A DNA stretch of 64,000 nt from Candidatus Latescibacterota bacterium (GTDB taxonomy: Bacteria > Latescibacterota > UBA2968 > UBA8231). Location of the stretch: assembly GCA_965217585.1 (NCBI GenBank), contig OZ244561.1, positions 6,848,001 to 6,912,000 on the forward strand, read 5' to 3'. A program made the position numbers and the translations under genes. The notes under the pieces were generated by a model that was not told the DNA's origin, made no database searches, and was given only the letters and a program-made list of their open reading frames with translations. Shown here piece after piece: positions 1 to 22,493 of this stretch (position 1 is the first letter of the stretch; the number at the start of each line of letters is the position of its first letter).

Positions 1-875
1 TGTCCATCGCGACCGACCTGTAGCAGGGTGGAGTAACAGGGGTTGACCATGAACTCAAAAAAAAGCGGCGGCTCCGCGCTGACCGCCCACGGCTGGGTTA
101 GCCAAACCCCCATCGGTCCAGCCTCTTCGAACTCCCAGCACGATCGGATCCATAACAGGCGCACGGCCCCTCTCGCTCCCAATGATTGCTCGGCGGACCA
201 AAGCCTAGGCCAGAGCCTGTCCTCGCTGTCAAGGGTGAACCGATCGCTGCGGACAAACTCTGCGTCGCCGTCGTTGAACCACACGGTCGCTTGGGATGTC
301 CCCTCGTGGTTTTCCAATGACTCGTCGTCATACTCCATGACCAACAGGTCCACATCGCCGTCGCCTTCACCATCGGCTAGGCCAACGAAACCGGTATTGG
401 GCAGTTGCAGGATGGTGGCAAAGCCGTCCTCGCCCCGGTTGTGCCACAGTTCGAGGTTCAATCCCTCCTCAAAGGCTAGATCCAAGAGTCCATCCCCGTC
501 GAAGTCGTCCCCCCAGATACTAATGATGGGCGCGCTTCCTTCTCCTGCTTCTCTTTTTCCGTGCATGACGTCGTGGGTGGGGACCAAGCCACCCAGGCCG
601 TCGTTGGACGCCACGGTCCAGCCCCAGTGTGGAAAATGTTCTCCCGAGGCTCCGTCGTCTGCATATACGTGTGGCGACCAACGATTCCAAACTGTCACGA
701 GATCCAAATCCCCATCGCCATCTACATCGCCCAAAGCGCCGGTATCATCATGGAACCCCATGCCGATGCCCGGGCCAAGGGTAAAAAAGTCGGGTTCTAC
801 AAACAACGCGCCGGGCGAGGCAAAAGCCCCGTATGGAGCCGCCAACAGCAAAATAGCTACGATAAAGCGGTGCAT
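1..875 (-). CDS. Secreted FG-GAP/VCBS-repeat protein (3' end runs off the window)
   Basis: Not in the ORF track; read manually. AGGAGG RBS then ATG at 875: MHRFIVAILLLAAPYGAFA signal peptide, followed by GDVDGDGDLDL, DFDGDGLLDL and DGEGDGDVDL Ca-binding FG-GAP-type motifs. Confidence 0.85.
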   Translation of the reverse strand, partial: MHRFIVAILLLAAPYGAFASPGALFVEPDFFTLGPGIGMGFHDDTGALGDVDGDGDLDLVTVWNRWSPHVYADDGASGEHFPHWGWTVASNDGLGGLVPTHDVMHGKREAGEGSAPIISIWGDDFDGDGLLDLAFEEGLNLELWHNRGEDGFATILQLPNTGFVGLADGEGDGDVDLLVMEYDDESLENHEGTSQATVWFNDGDAEFVRSDRFTLDSEDRLWPRLWSAEQSLGARGAVRLLWIRSCWEFEEAGPMGVWLTQPWAVSAEPPLFFEFMVNPCYSTLLQVGRDG

Positions 876-918
876 AGTTACCTCCTAAGTCGAAGGGTGG
901 GGTTGGTGCAGAAGGGCA

Positions 919-953
919 CGTAGGGACGGCTTGCGCTCCGCACCGCCCCTACG
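919..953. repeat. GTAG-type REP-like palindrome / intergenic hairpin
   Basis: cgtagggacgg...ccgcccctacg imperfect inverted repeat starting with GTAG, located between two co-oriented genes. Confidence 0.5.
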
Positions 954-965
954 CACGAGGTGCGA

Positions 966-1853
966 CTAACGAGTACCTGTTGAAAGCAGCGATTTGATCC
1001 GTCCCCACGACTGGGACTCGACGCTCGTAGCAGTAGCTGAAGGGGAAACCGATTGCCAAACGGGATTGCGTCCACCTAAGCCATTGGTCAATTCGACCAA
1101 GTTGCCCCCGTCTAGATCAACGGCCCAAATGAGCGGAGGGTGAGTGAGAGAAGCGAAGGCCATTCTCATGCCATCGGGTGCCCAAGTAGGGCGAGTTCTC
1201 CATGTGGCGTCGGACACGGTCGCGTTCCGGGGTAAGCTAGGCAGGGGAATAACCGAGTGCTCATCTTCACCAGCATCGCTGATGTAGAGGCGGGCGGGTT
1301 TCCCTGCGTCCCCTTTGTCGCGTAGCACGATGAAAGCTTCTTTGGTCCCGTCCGGGGAAAGGCTAGAGCGGCGGAAGTGGGGTGCCTCTCTCCAGTCCAC
1401 GGACAAGGAGCCACTACCGTCCAGCACCATAACGAACGTATCAGGACCGTCCCTCCGATTGTCCGTATCCGGCGGGGTATAGACGGTATAGTAAATGCTA
1501 CGCCCGTCTGCAGACCACGAAAGCAATAGTCCATCGACGGAATCGTCTGTTAGCTGCTGTGGATTGCCGCCGTCGGCATCCATCACCCAAATCTCCCCAC
1601 CGTACCGATCATCGTCAAAAACGTCGCCGATATAGGCGATTTTCGTGCCGTCTGGAGACCAAGCCGGGCTAGCGCAATCCCGCCCTTTGGTCAGATTTAC
1701 GGGGTCGCTCCCATCCGCATTCATGATCCACACGTCAAAGCGGTGCCCCTCGCGGTCGGAGATAAATGCTATCTTACCATCTGCTTGCCCCCACCCAGCG
1801 ACGGCCAATCCCAGCGTTGCCAAGCAGACGATCAGTAGGGATCGATAGTTCAT
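966..1853 (-). CDS. Secreted PD40/TolB-like beta-propeller protein with C-terminal SWGRIK motif
   Basis: Signal peptide MNYRSLLIVCLATLGLAVAGWGQAD; PAWSPDGTKIAY-type repeats; tail TATSVESQSWGRIKSLL. Confidence 0.9.
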   Translation of the reverse strand: MNYRSLLIVCLATLGLAVAGWGQADGKIAFISDREGHRFDVWIMNADGSDPVNLTKGRDCASPAWSPDGTKIAYIGDVFDDDRYGGEIWVMDADGGNPQQLTDDSVDGLLLSWSADGRSIYYTVYTPPDTDNRRDGPDTFVMVLDGSGSLSVDWREAPHFRRSSLSPDGTKEAFIVLRDKGDAGKPARLYISDAGEDEHSVIPLPSLPRNATVSDATWRTRPTWAPDGMRMAFASLTHPPLIWAVDLDGGNLVELTNGLGGRNPVWQSVSPSATATSVESQSWGRIKSLLSTGTR

Positions 1854-1898
1854 AACGTGGCTCCTTTCAGAAGGATGAATGAGAAGGTTAGATGTATG

Positions 1899-2915
1899 TC
1901 ATGGGGCTGAAAGCAGCGATTTGACCCGTCCCCACGAGGTCTCGGCCACAGCCGTCGGCTCCCCATCGGTATAAGACGCGATGTCCATCACGTAAATCCC
2001 CCAGTCGCCGTCGCGGTTGGATTCAAAGGCGATGTACCGACCATCGGGAGACCAAGACGGAGACCTGTAGTTGGCCGAGTGGTCTATCAGGCGGCGGGGA
2101 TTGCTCCCATCCGATCCCATCACGTAAATCTCGGCCCTGTCGTAGCGCTCGGACTCAAAGGCGATGTACCGACCATCGGGAGACCAAGACGGAGCCCTAT
2201 CGTCGGCCGAGTGGTCCGTCAGGCGGCGGGGATTGCTCCCATCCGATCCCATCACGTAAATCCCAGCCCTGCCGCCGTGCTCGGACACGAAGGCGATGTG
2301 CCGACCATCCGGAGACCAAGACGGAGACTCGACCTGCTCCGGGTGGTCGGTCAGGCGGCGGGAGTTGCTCCCATCCGATCCTATCGCGTAAATCTCAGCC
2401 TTGCCGTAGCTACCGCGCCGGGACACGAAGGCGATGTGTCGGCCATCCGGAGACCAAGACGGAGACCAGTCCCAATGCGAGTCGTTGGTCAGGTTGCGGC
2501 GGTCGCTCCCATCCGAGCCTATCACGTAAATATCGCTGACGCCGCGCTCGGACACGAAGGCGATGTGCTGGCCATCGGGAGACCAAGTGGGAAGCGCGGC
2601 CCAAGCTGGGTGGTCGGTCAGGCGGCGGAAGTTGCTCCCATCCGAACCTATTACGTAAATCTTAGCCCTGCCGTCGCGCTCAAACCCGAAGGCAATGTGC
2701 TGACCATCGGGAGACCAAGTGGGAGAACTGTAGCTGGACGAGTAGTCAGTCAGGCGGCGTATGGCCCCGACGACCCAAGCCCCCTCACCACTGCTCGTCA
2801 CCGCTTGTTCAATCCCCGCCGACAGTTCAACATCCTCAGCGTCGGCTTGCCCCCAGCCAGCGACGGCCAGCCCCAAGGTTGCCAAGCAGACGATCAATAG
2901 AAATCGATAGTTCAT
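1899..2915 (-). CDS. Secreted PD40/TolB-like beta-propeller protein with C-terminal SWGRVK motif
   Basis: Near-identical leader to the previous gene; six ~44-aa PSWSPDGRHIAF...IYVMGSDGSNxRRLTD repeats; tail PTAVAETSWGRVKSLL. Confidence 0.92.
   Translation of the reverse strand: MNYRFLLIVCLATLGLAVAGWGQADAEDVELSAGIEQAVTSSGEGAWVVGAIRRLTDYSSSYSSPTWSPDGQHIAFGFERDGRAKIYVIGSDGSNFRRLTDHPAWAALPTWSPDGQHIAFVSERGVSDIYVIGSDGSDRRNLTNDSHWDWSPSWSPDGRHIAFVSRRGSYGKAEIYAIGSDGSNSRRLTDHPEQVESPSWSPDGRHIAFVSEHGGRAGIYVMGSDGSNPRRLTDHSADDRAPSWSPDGRYIAFESERYDRAEIYVMGSDGSNPRRLIDHSANYRSPSWSPDGRYIAFESNRDGDWGIYVMDIASYTDGEPTAVAETSWGRVKSLLSAP
1990..2760 (-). repeat. Intragenic ~132-bp tandem repeats (PD40 blades)
   Basis: Repeated ccatcgggagaccaagacgg / gctcccatccgatcccatcacgtaaat units at roughly 132-bp spacing. 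Confidence 0.85.
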
Positions 2916-2950
2916 AATGCATCTCCTTTCAGAAGGTTAGACTTCATCCC

Positions 2951-3847
2951 TTATGGCAGCTTGGTCGTTTTTTTCGCTTCCACCTGTCCGTCCACCTCGA
3001 CCTTATAGATATACACTCCGGCCGCCACGGCCTTGCCCTGCTCGTCGCGGCCATCCCACACAAACCGATGGCTACCCGCCCCAAGCGGCCCGTGCCACAA
3101 CTGCCGCACCCGATGACCCAACACGTTGTAGAGTGCCAAGTGGACCCGTTCCTCGTCGGTGGCCAGATCGAGGGGAATGACTATCGCGGGATTGAACGGA
3201 TTGGGATAGGCAGTGCCGAGTCGATGCTGCACTGGTTGGCCCGCTGACGGTGTCAGCACGGCGGTCGGCATCGCCTGCTTGACCTCCGAACAGAGGGTGG
3301 AGGAGCAGAGACAACTTCGCCACCACATGTCGTCGTTGAAGTGGTACGTAGTGCAGTGCCGGTACGGCTCGGTCGAGTTAAACTCTGCGCACTCGTCGGA
3401 GTACCAGCAACCAGTATCTTGACTGGTCGCGGCCGTCAGCACCCACTCTGGCACGGCCTCCGAACAGGGCGTGGACGAGTACCAACAGTTTTTTATGTAG
3501 AAGGAGCAGTCCGCGTCCAAGGCATAGATGCAGTAGAGGTATTTCGCCTCCGGCTCCACTGGATCTGTATCTGCCCGCGCGCAAATTGGATGCTCGGAGT
3601 TGGCGCTACAGTCGAAACACTGAATCCAAGTGTTCGGGCACGGTATGCAAGTAGGCGTCGGCGTCGGGCACAACCTGTTGGCTTCGGCTTTATTGATCCC
3701 AATCAGGCAAGTAGGCGTCAAGCACACCGGGTCGGCTTCGGCTTTGTTGATCTCGATCAGGACCGCAAGCCCCGCGAGGACACTCAGCCCCAGCCGAATC
3801 GGAGCCAAGCCGCTGGACGAGCCGATAAATTCACGCAGCCTGTTCAT
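2951..3847 (-). CDS. Secreted cysteine-rich protein with C-terminal FlgD-Ig / T9SS type-A-like sorting domain
   Basis: Hydrophobic N-terminus; Cys-rich core with SSTPCSEA-type repeats; tail AYPNPFNP...LYNVLG...WDGRD...AGVYIY. Confidence 0.85.
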   Translation of the reverse strand: MNRLREFIGSSSGLAPIRLGLSVLAGLAVLIEINKAEADPVCLTPTCLIGINKAEANRLCPTPTPTCIPCPNTWIQCFDCSANSEHPICARADTDPVEPEAKYLYCIYALDADCSFYIKNCWYSSTPCSEAVPEWVLTAATSQDTGCWYSDECAEFNSTEPYRHCTTYHFNDDMWWRSCLCSSTLCSEVKQAMPTAVLTPSAGQPVQHRLGTAYPNPFNPAIVIPLDLATDEERVHLALYNVLGHRVRQLWHGPLGAGSHRFVWDGRDEQGKAVAAGVYIYKVEVDGQVEAKKTTKLP

Positions 3848-3859
3848 CGCTTCGTCTCC

Positions 3860-4909
3860 TTAGTTGCCGGTACGGTCTCGCAAATGCCTCTTGATCTGCC
3901 CCCACGAGGTCTCCGCCGTAGCCGTCGGCTTCCCGTCGACATAAGACGCTATGTCCCAGAAACGCACCAAGTAGGATTGACCCGTGGCGCTGGCCAACGT
4001 GCGACCATCCGGTGAATACGCCACGAAGTCCGCACGCCCTTCGAGCGTATTGAGGAGTTCGCCTGTCGCCGCATCCCAAAGATGGATCGTGTGGTCATTA
4101 GTACTGACCAACATGCCTCCATCCGGTGAATACGCCAAACCATCACCACATTTACCGAAATGACCTAGCCCTTCGAGCGTATTGAGGAGTTCACCCGTCG
4201 TCGCATCCCAAAGACGTATCGTTCGATCTCGACTCCCACTGACCAGCCTGCGCCCATTCGGCGAGTATGAAACACTCACGACACCATGCGTGTGCCCTCT
4301 AAGCGTGTTGAGGAGTTCACCCGTCTTTACGTCCCAAAGACGAACCGTTTCGTCGGAACTCCCACTGACCAGCCTACTCCCATCCGGCGAGTATGAAACA
4401 CTCAGGACACTCTCTTTATGCCCTGTAAGCGTATTGAGAAGTTCACCTGTTGTCGTGTCCCAAAGACGTATCGTTTTGTCGAGACTCCCACTAGCCACTG
4501 CGTCCCCTCCCGGCGAATACGATACGCTAAAGACGTTATCCCTATGCCCTCTAAGCGTGTTGAGAAGTTCACCCGTCTTTGAGTCCCAAAGACGAACCGT
4601 TTCGTCGAAACTCCCACTGACCAGCCTGCTCCCATCCGGTGAATACGCCACATCCCAGACCAAATACGTATGCCCTGTAAGTGTGTTGAGGAGTTTACCC
4701 GTCGCCACATCCCAAAGACGAACCCTTTCGTCGAAATTCCCAGTGGCTACTACGTCCCCGTCTGGTGAATACGCCACACTAGTAACCCAGCTTGGTAGCC
4801 CTTTGGAATAGCTGCTACCCCCTTGGGAATAGCTGCTACCCGGCAGGCCAAAAGCTATCAAGCAGGCGATTAACACGAGACGGGTTTGATGTACAACTCG
4901 CGTTTTCAT
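3860..4909 (-). CDS. Secreted WD40-repeat protein with C-terminal SWGQIK motif
   Basis: Likely ATG at 4909 after AAAGGA; about seven GH...VSYSPDG..LVSGS.D.TVRLWD repeats at ~126-bp spacing; tail PTATAETSWGQIK. Confidence 0.92.
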   Translation of the reverse strand: MKTRVVHQTRLVLIACLIAFGLPGSSYSQGGSSYSKGLPSWVTSVAYSPDGDVVATGNFDERVRLWDVATGKLLNTLTGHTYLVWDVAYSPDGSRLVSGSFDETVRLWDSKTGELLNTLRGHRDNVFSVSYSPGGDAVASGSLDKTIRLWDTTTGELLNTLTGHKESVLSVSYSPDGSRLVSGSSDETVRLWDVKTGELLNTLRGHTHGVVSVSYSPNGRRLVSGSRDRTIRLWDATTGELLNTLEGLGHFGKCGDGLAYSPDGGMLVSTNDHTIHLWDAATGELLNTLEGRADFVAYSPDGRTLASATGQSYLVRFWDIASYVDGKPTATAETSWGQIKRHLRDRTGN

Positions 4910-4967
4910 GGGAAATTCCTTTCGGTGAGTTTTGAGGACTCTTCCACACGCCATTTTCAATCATTCC

Positions 4968-5951
4968 TTATGGCAGCTTGGTCGTCTTTTTCGCTTCCAC
5001 CTGTCCGTCCACCTCGACCTTATAGATATACACTCCGGCAGCCACGGCCTTGTCCTGCTCGTCGCGGCCATCCCACACAAACCGATGGCTACCCGCCCCA
5101 AGCGGCCCGTGCCACAACTGCCGCACCCGATGACCCAACACGTTGTAGAGTGCCAAGTGGACCCGTTCCTCGTCCGTCGCCAAATCAAGAGGAATCACCA
5201 TCGCGGGATTGAACGGATTGGGATAGGCATCGCACAGCCGATGCTGCGCCGGCCGCGCTTCCACCAATGTCTGCACGGCGGTCATCTGATCCTGCTCGGC
5301 CTCCGAACAAGAGGTGGAAGAGCACTCGCATTGTCGCCAAAAAATGTTGCCTTCTGCGTTATAGTAATTAGTGCAATATCGGTACGGCTTGGTCGAGTCC
5401 CTCCCCTCGCACCAGCGGTTATCGCACTCAGTCTCTTGATTGAAGCAAGCATTGGTCGGCCCTGTGAACGCGGTCGCGGTCTCCGGCTCGGCCTCTGAAC
5501 AGGGGGTGGAGGAACACTCGCATGCTTCTGTCCCAAAAACGTCGCCGTTTGCTTTGTAGTAGTTGATACAGTATCGGTACGGCTTGGTCGAGTCCCTTCC
5601 TGCGCCGCACCACCGGTTATCGTTATCGCAATCAACCTTTCGGGTCAGCACAGCGGGTGCGATCCCTTGGTCGGCCTCCGAACAGGGAGTGGAGGAGTTC
5701 CAGCAATCCACTGTGTAGAAGTTGCAGTCCGCGTCCAAACCATAGGTGCAATAGCGATACATCCCCTCTGCCGACGCACAATCGGAGCCGGCACTGCACA
5801 CGGTCCAAGTGTACGGGCACTCTGTGTCGGCTGCGGAGCCCCTTGCGCCGAAGAGAATCACAAGCCCCGCGAGGGCACTTACGACCCATCCTTGCCCCTG
5901 TCGTATCCCCAACGTTGCCAAGCAGGCGATCAGTAGAGATCGATAGTTCAT
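4968..5951 (-). CDS. Secreted cysteine-rich protein with FlgD-Ig / T9SS-like sorting domain (paralog of 2951-3847)
   Basis: MNYRSLLIACLATLG leader; three YRYC...CxxSSTxCSEA modules; last ~90 aa almost identical to those of 2951-3847. Confidence 0.85.
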   Translation of the reverse strand: MNYRSLLIACLATLGIRQGQGWVVSALAGLVILFGARGSAADTECPYTWTVCSAGSDCASAEGMYRYCTYGLDADCNFYTVDCWNSSTPCSEADQGIAPAVLTRKVDCDNDNRWCGAGRDSTKPYRYCINYYKANGDVFGTEACECSSTPCSEAEPETATAFTGPTNACFNQETECDNRWCEGRDSTKPYRYCTNYYNAEGNIFWRQCECSSTSCSEAEQDQMTAVQTLVEARPAQHRLCDAYPNPFNPAMVIPLDLATDEERVHLALYNVLGHRVRQLWHGPLGAGSHRFVWDGRDEQDKAVAAGVYIYKVEVDGQVEAKKTTKLP

Positions 5952-6001
5952 AACGTGGCTCGTTTCAGAAGGTTAGGAATGGGGTGCCTACGGAGGAATA
6001 T

Positions 6002-6019
6002 ATGCACATTCCGTGCCAA
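6002..6019 (-). promoter_or_regulatory. Sigma-54 (-24/-12) promoter
   Basis: Minus strand TTGGCACGGAATGTGCAT contains TGGCACG with exact GG-N10-GC spacing, ~50 bp upstream of the first ATG (5951) of the operon. Confidence 0.8.
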
Positions 6020-6034
6020 AAACACGGCCGCCGA

Positions 6035-6066
6035 CAAAAAAGCCTTTAGGAATACCCTAAAGGCTT
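6035..6066 (-). terminator. Rho-independent terminator of the activator remnant
   Basis: Perfect 11-bp stem aagcctttagg/cctaaaggctt with a 5-nt loop, followed by a T-run on the minus strand. Confidence 0.75.
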
Positions 6067-6140
6067 GAAAAACATAACACTTAAAACATGAGACGAGCCT
6101 TTCTACGATGCGCAGTCTCAGCCGTCGGTGCAAGGTTTCC

Positions 6141-6196
6141 CACGTTTTTTCGTGGAATCTTCACGGTATTTCGTGGATTTTCCACGACTTTCCGTG
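6141..6196. promoter_or_regulatory. Three phased palindromic enhancer (UAS) sites, CACG-N6-CGTG
   Basis: CACG at 6141, 6162 and 6183, each followed by N6-CGTG; exact 21-bp period; about 150-200 bp upstream of the predicted sigma-54 transcription start. Confidence 0.7.
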
Positions 6197-6204
6197 TTGG
6201 TCGC

Positions 6205-6628
6205 CTACGACTTCTTCGGTCGGCGCAACCCGTACTTCCTCATGCGATAGCGCAGCTTCTCTGGGCTCATGCCCAACAAATGCGCCGCGCCCCGCTCGCC
6301 ATAGATCATCCAGGTACTCGCCCACCGGTAAGGCATTGTACGCGACCGTATCGGCGGCCGTAAACGCGCTCCATTGTTCCGCTGGACCGTGGCCTAACAG
6401 CCGATGGCTGTAGCGCATCTGCCCCGCGCCGGTGCGGAAGCTAATGCCCTGGAAGTGAATGCGGATCTCAGGCGTGCTCTCTGGGCAGGATACGGCTTCG
6501 GGCGCGGCCAAGAGGGTGCCAGCCATCACTTCGCGGATGACCAAGCGCGGCGGCGTGCGTCCCGATTGGCCGACAGCCCAACTGTTCGGCAGTAAAGTGG
6601 CGTACCTCCCGAGACCGCGGTGCTGCAT
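6205..6628 (-). pseudogene. Collapsed remnant of a Y_Y_Y-sensor / sigma-54 enhancer-binding protein gene
   Basis: Y_Y_Y-like segment IHFQGISFRTGAGQMRYSHRLLG...WS...YNALPVGEY joined out of frame near 6312 to an FhlA-type Fis HTH, WMIYGERGAAHLLGMSPEKLRYRMRKYGL, with stop at 6205. The AAA+ domain is absent. Confidence 0.75.
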
Positions 6629-6696
6629 TCATCAAGATAAGCTAGGGCTGCCTCAAGTTGAATTTTACCAGACAAATATGCTTCTTCATATATCCT

Positions 6697-7623
6697 ATGC
6701 AGCCCATTTCTTCTCCATCCTCGCCCCTCTTCCCCGGCTTTGCCGAATACCGCCTCGCCCTCGCCGACCAAGTCGAAATGGCGTATCTCGACAATGGCGG
6801 CGGGGACCACCCCCCGTTGGTGCTGCTACACGGCGTCTTTGACAACAAAGCCACGTGGTTCCGCTTGGTTGCCCGCCTTCCCGACCGCCGCATCATCGCA
6901 CCCGACTTGATCGGCCACGGGCACAGCAGCAAGCCGACCTTTGCCGCCCGCCCGGCGCACGAGCGCTACTCACCCGACATGCAGGCTGGCTACCTCGCGG
7001 CCTTTATCGCCGCACTGGACTTGGACGACGTAATCCTCTTGGGCAATTCGCTCGGCGGAGGCTTGGCCCTGCGCCTGTACCTCGACTTTCCCGCGCTCGC
7101 GGCCAAAGTGCGCGGACTAGTGCTCATCGACGCGGCCGGCTACCCGCACCAACTCCCCGTGCACGTGCGCACCCTCGGCAGCTATCCGGGCAAGCTGCTG
7201 ACCCATGCCCCGCTCCACGCCTTGGCCCGCGCATCCGGCCTGTTGGGTTTGGCTACTTGGCGCACCTTCCGGCGCTGCTTCCACGACCGCCGCAAAATCC
7301 CCCCCGAACTCGCAACGGTCGCCCGCGCCGCACTCGAGACGCCCAACGCCGCGTATGCCTACCACTACTCAGCGCGGAACCTCGTCCCCCCCGACATAGC
7401 AACGTTCCACCGGCGCTTTGGCGACATCACCTGCCCGACCTTGGTCTTGTGGGGACAGCAGGACCGCGTCCTACCGGTGCGCTCGGCCCAGCGCTTCGTC
7501 GCCGCACTTCCCCGCGCCGACCTGCACGTCTTCCCCAATTGCGGACACGCGCCCCACCTCGAATACCCCGATGAGACGGCCGCCTACATTGAGCGGTGGA
7601 TGAAAGGACACACGATGCTCTAA
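6697..7623 (+). CDS. Alpha/beta-fold hydrolase
   Basis: LLHG oxyanion motif, GNSLGG nucleophile elbow, WGQQD, GHAPHLE. Start uncertain (6658 or 6697). Confidence 0.9.
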   Translation: MQPISSPSSPLFPGFAEYRLALADQVEMAYLDNGGGDHPPLVLLHGVFDNKATWFRLVARLPDRRIIAPDLIGHGHSSKPTFAARPAHERYSPDMQAGYLAAFIAALDLDDVILLGNSLGGGLALRLYLDFPALAAKVRGLVLIDAAGYPHQLPVHVRTLGSYPGKLLTHAPLHALARASGLLGLATWRTFRRCFHDRRKIPPELATVARAALETPNAAYAYHYSARNLVPPDIATFHRRFGDITCPTLVLWGQQDRVLPVRSAQRFVAALPRADLHVFPNCGHAPHLEYPDETAAYIERWMKGHTML

Positions 7624-7737
7624 GTATTTGTTTTAATGGATTAAAGAAAATTTATCCGCGCCCCATAAACATAACTGCAACTATTCTCCACCACCGGCGT
7701 CTAAGCTACAGAAAATCTGTTGACAAGGAGCGACAAC

Positions 7738-7947
7738 ATGCCACTGTATCGCCACGTAGAAGCCTCGGGTGCCCCAGACGAGATCATCGTGATCGAGGAT
7801 CGGGGAATGCTCGGGCGTGGCCAGCCCAGTTTCGAGTTTATCGACTCGCGTACCATCAAGGCTCATCCCCTCATCGTCGAAGCCCTAATCGCTGACGCCG
7901 AGCGTTTGTGGACCCTTGAAGAAGTGCTTGCCGACGTAGAGGAGTGA
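7738..7947 (+). CDS. Small acidic hypothetical protein (69 aa)
   Basis: AAGGAG RBS before ATG at 7738; codon style typical of the region; no recognised domain. Confidence 0.65.
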   Translation: MPLYRHVEASGAPDEIIVIEDRGMLGRGQPSFEFIDSRTIKAHPLIVEALIADAERLWTLEEVLADVEE

Positions 7948-8083
7948 CGCGCTGTTCGCCCCCACAGCGCGCCACTGAGTAACACAAAAACACCTGTAGA
8001 CTATCCCCCTCCTCTTCCTCTCCCCGGCAAAAATCCAGTCCATCCCCTAGCGCGGTCGCGCCTTGGCCACATCTTCGACCTCT

Positions 8084-21614: not shown

Positions 21615-22493
21615 TTATTCAGAGCCGAAAGCCGCCTTGATCCGTCCCCAGGTCCGCGCTTCGGTCGCGGTGGGGATCTCGGCCTCGGTGTCGGCTACGG
21701 ACACTAGGAGCACGTCGCTGGCATTTTCTCCCTGGGTGGCCAGATCCCCGAGCCGCCAGGCCACCTCGTCCTTGGGATCCTCGGTGTCCTGGTCCTCAAT
21801 GGTCATGCCGAGACCAATCACCTCGCCGGCAGTCAAGGTGTGCACTGCGGAGGCGTCCGGGCCGTCGAAGGACAACTCGTCGTAGGTGATCTGGGCGATC
21901 TCAAAGGTCCAGTCGTTGTCTATGGTTTCCCCCGCCTGGAACATCTGCGGCTCATCCGTCACCCACTTCAGCGGACCTGGTTCGACGCCAGACCCCTCGA
22001 TCTGCCAGAACACGACGATTTTCTCGTCCGGGGTCCAGCCAAACTGCTGGGCCCTCCGGGAATCGTTACCCTCCTGGCCAAAGTCGGGGTCGGCGCTGTG
22101 GTCGGCGTCCAAGAGCCACATGTAGTTGTCTTCGGCGAAGGACACCGAGTAGTCCTCTGCCCGCGAAAACTGCAGGTCGTCTATGATGCGACCTACGTGG
22201 TAGAGCATGTTGGTTTCGGGGCTCCAAGCCAAGAAGAACAGCACATCGAAGTCGTCTCGCGGGGTACTGCCGCTGGAGACACCGTCCGATACTACGCCCG
22301 GCCATGGACTGCTCATGGTCCAGGTGAAGGTGTCGGGCATCCAGGCCCAGTCCGAGATGTCGCCGTCGAACTGGATCTGCGCGAGCTTGTCCGACGGAAT
22401 CCCAGCCGCAAAGGCCTCGAATCCAGCGGGAGTGTGCGCCGCACTATGGGTGACCCATCCCGTCAGGATGAGCATGGCGATACTGAGTCTCAT
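21615..22493 (-). CDS. Secreted acidic protein, CBM9/DOMON-like fold, with C-terminal TWGRIK motif
   Basis: AGGAGG RBS; signal peptide; FDGDISDW ... WTFEIA ... GEVIGL pattern typical of CBM9-like domains; tail PTATEARTWGRIKAAF. Confidence 0.8.
   Translation of the reverse strand: MRLSIAMLILTGWVTHSAAHTPAGFEAFAAGIPSDKLAQIQFDGDISDWAWMPDTFTWTMSSPWPGVVSDGVSSGSTPRDDFDVLFFLAWSPETNMLYHVGRIIDDLQFSRAEDYSVSFAEDNYMWLLDADHSADPDFGQEGNDSRRAQQFGWTPDEKIVVFWQIEGSGVEPGPLKWVTDEPQMFQAGETIDNDWTFEIAQITYDELSFDGPDASAVHTLTAGEVIGLGMTIEDQDTEDPKDEVAWRLGDLATQGENASDVLLVSVADTEAEIPTATEARTWGRIKAAFGSE

Follow-up and report, generated by a model that had tools for sequence, protein, structure and literature searches.

Small disulfide-rich modules typically hold three to four disulfides, stand in tandem on linkers and work through a surface of exposed aromatic residues or through a hairpin loop. 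Passage of proteins through the secretion system of type IX (T9SS), driven by a C-terminal domain (CTD) and followed by processing by PorU, is established for Bacteroidota. Cargo with type-A CTDs is known from that phylum, for instance the CTD proteins of Porphyromonas gingivalis (PMC4804311 and PMC8545088). Within Latescibacterota, sponge-associated metagenome-assembled genomes (MAGs) are described as encoding eukaryotic-like proteins, including WD40, TPR, ankyrin and other types (PMC12993501). In that article, the terms 'T9SS', 'secretion system' and 'disulfide' have no occurrences, and its three mentions of 'cysteine' belong to sulfur metabolism or to a cited title. In a literature search, with subscription journals outside its scope, none of the papers listed tied Latescibacter to T9SS, cysteine-rich proteins, WD40 or disulfides. 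The present analysis concerns two neighbouring genes, P0001 and P0002, which encode a repeated cysteine-rich unit ahead of a putative T9SS tag. They lie in a stretch of 64,000 nucleotides (hereafter the window) from an uncultured Candidatus Latescibacterota bacterium (GenBank assembly GCA_965217585.1, contig OZ244561.1, positions 6,848,001 to 6,912,000).

The reading preferred here, with a probability of about 0.55, is that the unit is a new module, specific to one lineage and stapled by disulfides, which the cell displays on its surface for binding. Its parts differ in firmness: there is good reason to believe that the proteins are secreted and that a new domain, stapled by disulfides, precedes their T9SS tag, while the role of the unit as a binding module is advanced tentatively. 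The initial annotation of this DNA, made from the letters and their open reading frames, had described an unrecognised cysteine-rich repeat in two secreted paralogs and had taken it for a small disulfide-knotted binding or inhibitor domain. Its observation was right, and its interpretation is plausible and partly supported.

The cysteine-rich unit and its distribution

The two proteins, P0001 and P0002, are paralogous, sharing 51% identity (E 3e-87), and contain two and three copies of the unit respectively, as initially annotated; the repeat strings quoted at that time all occur in the two translations. The unit is 44–63 residues long with 6–8 cysteines and follows the pattern C1-x6-C2-x5/6-C3-x8/9-Y-x-[YH]-C4-x12-15-C6-x-C6'-S-S-T-P-C7-S-E-A in an alignment (A3) of 48 units taken from the present genome and from its relatives. 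The first unit of each protein is of type A, a type without C6' and with an extra cysteine in LDxxC that brings the count to seven, or to eight in a variant with a CFDCS..EHPIC insert. Type B units have six cysteines, or seven if C1 is present, and a third, shorter type of first unit occurs in some relatives (P0021, P0026 and P0028). First and last units recognise each other by BLASTP within both proteins (E 2e-6 in P0002, E 0.019 in P0001), and in the unit alignment the second unit of P0002 shares 75% identity with the third. Strictly formulated, the motif Y.[YH]C.{8,20}C.{1,2}SST.CSE has only six matches in the six frames of the 7.32-Mb genome, five of them in P0001 and P0002 and the sixth in a third paralog, and none in three 2-Mb shuffles. 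Taken together, a small, cysteine-dense, repeated extracytoplasmic module is supported, and the variable loop noted at the outset between fixed cysteines corresponds to the C4–C6 loop, which differs between paralog groups.

An AlphaFold2 model of one unit (P0002 unit 3, on the A3 alignment) reached a mean pLDDT of 86.6 and a pTM of 0.63, with strands at residues 4–10, 23–30 and 36–44 and short helices at 14–17 and 47–49. This confident model presents the unit as an antiparallel beta-meander of three strands, to which two short helical turns are added. In the model, strand 2 contains YxYC, strand 3 contains CxC, and the paralog-variable loop forms the tip of the hairpin between them. As a separate observation, the type-B hairpin tip between C4 and C6 (e.g. 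window 5560–5580, and relatives L021–L023) reads X-G-D/N in 36 of 57 instances, namely RGD 9, NGD 7, DGD 7, EGN 5, EGD 4, HGD 3 and NGN 1. The nine RGD tips all come from one ortholog group, and the type-B tips of other kinds are DDDD or NND runs.

Searches with whole proteins, units, profiles and the model brought no known family or fold to light. Pfam and NCBIfam matched P0001 and P0002 in the CTD only, with nothing in the cysteine-rich part; the A3 profile had a best E of 1.5 against PDB sequences, and the ESM Atlas gave no usable match to P0002 residues 40–235. Foldseek of the unit model against the PDB returned no match at E≤0.001 (best E 1.3), and among the 48,161 chains compared by VIA-align none reached Z≥5 (best Z 3.5), the top of its list being flat, with unrelated proteins that include many propeller blades; short domains inherently score low in such comparisons. 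The modelled unit found no Pfam family at E≤10. When the 48 units were compared singly with Pfam-A at the same threshold, seven families appeared, each with one or two units, the best being CART at E 0.067. On this evidence the unit appears to constitute a real, new and lineage-specific protein domain family. The family, which the initial annotation had not recognised, thus remained unrecognised in Pfam, NCBIfam, PDB sequences, the ESM Atlas, Foldseek and VIA-align, and no confident match to a known domain emerged from Pfam or from AlphaFold with Foldseek.

A sub-threshold match to Squash in 2 of the 48 units (best E 0.14) touches on the possibility that the proteins are multi-headed protease inhibitors, the loop of each stapled unit blocking a host or prey protease in a Kazal, squash or thyroglobulin-1-like manner. 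Such inhibitors are indeed usually built of small disulfide-rich units placed in tandem on linkers. This alternative is nevertheless unlikely, as no inhibitor-family profile or structural match reached significance, no conserved candidate reactive-site residue stands out, and the hairpin tip that is most exposed is Asx/Gly-rich and looks like a turn and not like a substrate-like loop.

The family is narrowly distributed. A word-indexed search recovered 26 homologs among 5.8 billion clusters, all of 186–332 residues, one of which is annotated as 'Gemmatimonadota T9SS type A sorting domain-containing protein'. When a profile of the cysteine-rich region (A2) was searched against representatives of all lengths, 1.84 billion in number, it found 11 proteins at E≤1e-3; ten belong to the family, mostly as fragments. 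The other, a repetitive protein of 2652 residues (P0033; matched 11 times by the profile, E 6.5e-16), was rejected by eye as spurious, its matched stretch HVADCW.SETPISKSS lacking the cysteine pattern. Across genomes of the phylum, a profile match at E≤0.001 was present in 18 of 30 genomes of the same genus and in 4 of 10 of a second (sister) genus of the same family, and was absent from 35 other genomes of that family and from 92 genomes of thirteen other families. Within what was searched, the profile hence confines the cysteine-rich family to two related genera. The present genome has four genes of the family; orthologs of P0002 occur in four other genomes at 86–91% identity, and the ortholog of P0001 in genome G002 (L042) differs by a dN of 0–0.03 in the units.

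Export tags and probable cysteine pairing

P0001 and P0002 share one layout, consisting of a hydrophobic leader, units on P/T/A/E linkers, a TAV-containing linker and an 85-residue CTD. The signal peptides were called by eye from a hydrophobic segment followed by A-x-A-like sites, and a conserved 16-residue segment (MNRLREFIGSSSGLAP) ahead of the hydrophobic segment is unusual. The C-terminal 85 residues are nearly identical in the two proteins and pass both FlgD_ig (PF13860; 43.1 bits in P0001 and 40.4 in P0002, cut-off 27) and TIGR04183, the curated NCBIfam model of the T9SS type-A sorting domain (28.2 bits in P0001 and 26.9 in P0002, against a cut-off of 23). The corresponding machinery is encoded in the genome, with PorU at 627.5 bits (NF033707, cut-off 420), an adjoining PorV at 67.1 bits (PF19572) and SprA at 80.3 bits (SprA_N), and the CTD profile matches 265 open frames at E≤1e-3. 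Furthermore, a fourth paralog has the same A and B units but carries a tail ...ETSWGQIK... (TVVDETSWGQIKTLKQNNSDF) in place of the CTD, and this type of tail also ends the WD40 and PD40 propellers of the gene row. The cysteine-rich part therefore behaves as a passenger combinable with either C-terminal tag.

Several side observations concern the two ends of these proteins. The first 16 codons of P0002 (MNYRSLLIACLATLGI; 5904–5951, minus strand) are those of the leader of the neighbouring PD40 family, of which eight genes matched in a genome scan, while the homolog P0003, 90% identical to P0002, begins with the family leader MNRLREFIGSSS. The sequences point to a 5' end of P0002 that was swapped through recombination, leaving two hydrophobic segments. 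P0001 contains an internal duplication (INKAEAD/INKAEAN) of its leader cleavage region (LIEINKAEADPVCLTPTC and LIGINKAEANRLCPTPTPTC; window 3650–3760, minus strand). This duplication, at residues ~30–66, supplies four or five extra cysteines ahead of unit 1 and is common to the G002 ortholog L042 and to P0029. At the other end, CTDs of the unrelated FG-GAP neighbours are 72–79% identical to those of P0001 and P0002. The second tail, with the consensus TAVExx[ST]WG[RQ]IK[AS]xF, closes the genes at 966–1853, 1899–2915 and 3860–4909 (minus strand) and recurs near window position 21653. Open frames of at least 100 residues contain its core [ST]WG.[IVL]K 69 times, in 67 cases no more than 30 residues from the stop and mostly 3–9. 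The tail ends ~65 proteins, mostly of ~170–420 residues, comprising many PD40/WD40 propellers and one cysteine-rich paralog. It has no hydrophobic segment and looks like a sorting tag; strings such as SWGRIK received no mention in the literature text search, within the scope given above.

The case for disulfides comes from counting. Cysteine totals are even in 38 of the 43 complete family members, which fall into classes of 12, 14, 16, 18 and 20. Among the five odd members, P0006, P0010 and P0011 look like deletion variants, having a single A unit and a single short B unit, P0019 has a foreign N-terminus, and P0025 probably lost its first cysteine to a fixed cut at residue 39. Since units hold 6, 7 or 8 cysteines, parity is satisfied only per protein. 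Moreover, C4 and C6 are replaced together in P0017 and P0022, by Y and S, and again, by I and R, in a separate subfamily (L049:7428–7994, of the tail type, and P0035). Such a joint loss, twice independently, is the pattern expected of a C4–C6 disulfide. Of the disulfide-knotted domain initially annotated, the pairing is thereby supported indirectly, through the even totals and the two co-losses.

A number of points weigh against the preferred reading. The profiles DsbB, VKOR, DSBA and Thioredoxin_4 found no match in the 94.6%-complete genome, in which controls matched, and this counts against simple periplasmic disulfide formation. The exported proteins of the genome are generally cysteine-poor and show no even-cysteine bias (of the 265 CTD frames, 67 have an even number, 71 an odd one and 79 no cysteine, while in 48 a heuristic found no leader; of the SWGxIK-tail frames, 21 are even, 19 odd and 20 free of cysteine), which makes the cysteine-rich family an outlier in its own genome. 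The parity counts are descriptive and not independent, as the family members are close kin. The Pfam model of the T9SS tail, Por_Secre_tail (PF18962), stays under its cut-off of 27 in both proteins (20.5 in P0001, 19.3 in P0002). The AlphaFold2 model of the whole of P0002 (42 sequences) is poor, with a mean pLDDT of 54; it was dropped from the fold search and hence does not give the arrangement of the units. Finally, no unit was found fused to an enzyme or other domain among the 1.84 billion representatives, so that genomic context offers no functional hint. As for the oxidant, exported proteins with a WCGPC thioredoxin fold (P0038, from the same cassette cluster) may be candidates.

The missing oxidation enzymes and the lack of even-cysteine bias among exported proteins are also what would be expected if the cysteines instead ligated Zn, Cu or another metal, in a metallothionein-like or structural Zn site, and a conserved His does stand beside a cysteine in some units (YRHC, EHPIC). 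Such a metal-binding module is rather improbable. It fits the missing CxxC knuckles, with one CxC per unit only, and the loss of just C4 and C6 in two lineages, the rest of the unit being kept, less well than disulfides do; additionally, totals are even and unit counts of 6, 7 and 8 misfit fixed four-ligand sites.

Gene row, promoter and evolution

The window belongs to a genome of 7.32 Mb on a single contig, 94.6% complete. Within window positions 1–6000, P0002 heads a same-strand row followed by the WD40 gene, P0001, two PD40 genes and an FG-GAP gene (Table 1), and the gaps from upstream of the WD40 gene to the second PD40 gene are tight (58, 12, 35 and 45 nt). Pfam WD40 matches the propeller between the two cysteine-rich genes in seven stretches (E 1e-72), and its start at MKTRVVHQ was picked through ortholog comparison. 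Beyond the row, cassettes on the same strand are repeated over ~70 kb (G000:C1:6786000-6856000, a stretch that takes in window 1–8000 and otherwise lies upstream of it); they carry FG-GAP proteins of ~710 residues with near-identical CTDs, DUF4159 proteins and PD40 propellers, and they also encode exported proteins of 656 and 688 residues with a terminal WCGPC thioredoxin fold.

Table 1. Features of the P0002-headed row, with positions counted from the first letter of the window
Feature	Position	Strand	Description	Basis
P0002	4968..5951	-	327 aa; chimeric leader, three cysteine-rich units, linker, T9SS type-A CTD	ORF and translation
P0002 leader (residues 1-41)	5829..5951	-	16 aa of PD40-family type MNYRSLLIACLATLGI, then own hydrophobic segment ending ...GSAAD	
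P0002 unit 1	5673..5822	-	type A, 7 Cys	unit extraction and alignment
P0002 unit 2	5490..5633	-	type B, 6 Cys, hairpin tip KANGD	unit alignment
P0002 unit 3	5298..5450	-	type B-long, 7 Cys; sequence used for the AlphaFold2 unit model	
P0002 CTD (residues 243-327)	4971..5225	-		Pfam FlgD_ig, NCBIfam TIGR04183
P0001	2951..3847	-	298 aa; leader MNRLREFIGSSS, extra Cys/Pro-rich N-terminal stretch, two units, CTD	ORF and translation
P0001 unit 1	3455..3643	-	type A variant, 8 Cys, CFDCS..EHPIC insert	unit alignment
P0001 unit 2	3281..3412	-	type B, 6 Cys	unit alignment
P0001 CTD (residues 214-298)	2954..3208	-		Pfam FlgD_ig, NCBIfam TIGR04183
WD40 propeller gene	3860..4909	-	secreted, seven-repeat; between P0002 and P0001; tail ...TATAETSWGQIKRHLRDRTGN	
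PD40 (TolB-like) propeller gene	1899..2915	-	MNYRF leader, SWGRVK tail	Pfam PD40, E 3e-67
Second PD40 propeller gene	966..1853	-	MNYRS leader, SWGRIK tail	Pfam
FG-GAP protein, start of gene	3..875	-		Pfam
Putative sigma-54-type -24/-12 promoter	6003..6018	-	TGGCACGGAATGTGCA; 51 nt upstream of P0002 ATG	sequence
Terminator-like hairpin	6040..6066	-	12-bp stem and T run; between enhancer-binding protein remnant and promoter	
Sigma-54 enhancer-binding protein remnant	6205..6568 (ORF 6164-6628)	-	Y_Y_Y-region fragment joined to helix-turn-helix end	

The sigma-54 consensus has GG at -24 and GC at -12 within TGGCACG-N4-TTGCW. The candidate promoter ahead of P0002 (TGGCACGGAATGTGCA) departs from it once, with G for T before TGC, and has nine near-identical copies in the genome, each ending a repeated module formed by the 3' end of an enhancer-binding protein (EBP) gene and the following intergenic stretch. 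A loose sigma-54 pattern occurs 25 times genome-wide against ~14 expected, so the pattern alone is weak, and position and conservation carry the case. The genome encodes rpoN (Sigma54_DBD, 205.6 bits). The EBP remnant upstream aligns by BLASTP with residues 594–678 (88% identity) and 1007–1037 (97% identity) of an intact paralog of 1037 residues; it has lost the AAA+ domain and the N-terminal propeller and kept the last 31 codons. Neither its ORF nor the fourth cysteine-rich paralog has a Pfam family. The module of EBP 3' end, hairpin and promoter occurs at least nine times in the genome, and five intact EBPs of 1037–1047 residues (Reg_prop, Y_Y_Y, Sigma54_activat, HTH_8) lie within 70 kb upstream. 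The degradation of the upstream EBP has left the P0002 row without an activator gene of the kind that, at other sites, stands ahead of this promoter module. We infer that the row is sigma-54-dependent.

Selection was approached with NG86 omega, a crude measure. In the units, values of 0.1–0.5 among orthologs and of mostly 0.2–0.6 were obtained, with ~0.6 in the linkers and 0.05–0.2 in the CTD. Diversifying selection on the loop, for which the initial annotation had looked to dN/dS, was not shown: omega is below 1 outside an 11-codon stretch (codons 70–80 of unit 1; 1.66 and 1.55), and this candidate was rejected with a pS of 0.04–0.09, too few sites to count. Between P0001 and P0002, dS is 0.145 in the CTD against 0.5–0.8 in the units, which suggests that the secretion tag was homogenised recently between neighbours, by concerted evolution within the cluster. 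RNA-library contigs from four runs of three studies labelled sponge metagenome match parts of both genes at 90–99% likeness (X18 on 5064–5402, 5417–5601 and 5626–5846; X17 on 2874–3189 and 3241–3432). They are compatible with transcription in close relatives, although DNA can occur in such libraries. Together with the 26 homologs and the omega values, they speak for genuine genes. Most of the gene row has some contigs and 6319–7000 has none in the four runs, which, as the runs consist of contigs, is not evidence of a transcription boundary.

The arrangement of the row raises the question of whether the passenger is a partner or substrate of the co-encoded propellers, docking on the upstream WD40 or PD40 propeller in a surface complex. 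An SWGxIK-tailed WD40 or PD40 gene lies directly upstream of the cysteine-rich gene in this genome and at L053, L061, L062, L063-65 and L066; the WD40 type precedes P0001-like genes at L062, L063-65 and L066, and the genes overlap by 1 nt at L063-65. At L054–L056, however, the cysteine-rich genes stand in tandem behind an FG-GAP protein with no propeller between them, and the type of the upstream propeller varies. As the genomes with this adjacency are close kin, it may reflect shared descent only. A complex prediction for WD40 residues 31–349 (4-row alignment) and the P0001 passenger (9-row alignment) scored 0.02 against a mark of 0.32 and has no bearing either way. A dedicated propeller partnership is of low probability, as was metal binding.

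Proposed function and comparison with known systems

Under the preferred reading of a stapled surface module, the sigma-54 promoter, read from the sequence as is the gene order, would start expression of the P0002-headed row together with its secreted WD40 and PD40 propellers. The hydrophobic leader would direct Sec export, the units would fold and their disulfides would then form, the C4–C6 bond presumably joining strands 2 and 3, as parity and co-loss indicate. One bond probably links different units, because unit counts are 6, 7 or 8 and protein totals are even all the same. With C4 paired to C6, the register of the strands would bring Y-x-Y onto one hairpin face along with a third Tyr and with a Trp. 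The type-A CTD would carry the protein through the T9SS and PorU would remove it, leaving the passenger anchored on the surface or released. The passengers are acidic and rich in aromatic residues: that of P0002 has 194 residues, an isoelectric point (pI) of 4.21, 20 cysteines and 23 aromatic residues, and that of P0001 has 168 residues, a pI of 4.35, 18 cysteines and 18 aromatic residues. Strung on P/T/A/E linkers, such modules may serve in binding, with the paralog-variable beta2–beta3 hairpin as the likeliest contact site and a glycan, or a surface protein of a host or particle, as the likeliest ligand.

A more specific, host-directed version, in which the stapled hairpin would offer its X-G-D/N tip to integrin-type receptors of a sponge in a disintegrin-like display, is very improbable. 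It would have a sponge-associated symbiont steering adhesion or phagocytosis and would include, as part of one joint reading, oxidation without DsbA, DsbB or VKOR, perhaps via the exported WCGPC protein P0038. The units of P0001 and P0002 bear NGD, EGN and NDD, not RGD, and G-D/N is simply a good beta-turn. The least credible alternative is that CTD cleavage would free secreted mini-proteins which, in the manner of defensins or bacteriocins, act on competitors as antimicrobials or toxin-like agents, for the defensin-like size and cysteine density and the weak structural neighbour laterosporulin3 (Foldseek E 4.8; VIA-align Z 2.9, root-mean-square deviation 2.4, 42 residues) are met by a flat list of unrelated matches (best Z 3.5), by strongly acidic passengers (pI 4.2–4.35), unlike cationic membrane-active peptides, and by the absence of immunity or processing genes nearby.

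If the preferred reading of a surface-displayed binding module is true, a new small disulfide-rich domain limited to two Latescibacterota genera would be added to the known ones, with close relatives in sponge RNA libraries. A passenger made of units alone would be a clean subject for structural and binding studies, and scaffolds that are small and stable, stapled by disulfides and provided with a variable hairpin would be useful starts for binder engineering. The biochemistry presents a puzzle, namely an organism with no detectable DsbA, DsbB or VKOR and a cysteine-poor set of exported proteins, yet with proteins of 14–20 cysteines that look fully paired. On its ordinary side, the finding amounts to one further orphan passenger, specific to its lineage, on a secretion tag that is well known.

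Three described systems come closest. The eukaryotic-like proteins of sponge-associated MAGs (PMC12993501) belong to the same phylum and are secreted repeat proteins, and a WD40 gene stands here between the cysteine-rich genes; the cysteine-rich unit itself, however, resembles no eukaryotic domain detectably. With the T9SS cargo of Bacteroidota, P0001 and P0002 share the order of leader, passenger and ~85-residue beta-sandwich CTD passing TIGR04183, as well as PorU, PorV and SprA encoded in the genome. They differ in that the organism is a member of Latescibacterota, that the CTD scores best against FlgD_ig and below the PF18962 cut-off, and that the passenger domain is without known relatives. 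The Kazal and squash inhibitors, CBM1, hevein, CBM14 and disintegrins are similar in their 40–60 residues and small antiparallel sheet. No profile, PDB-sequence or above-noise fold match connects the unit to these families, from which it is set apart by a cysteine spacing and an SSTPCSE signature of its own.

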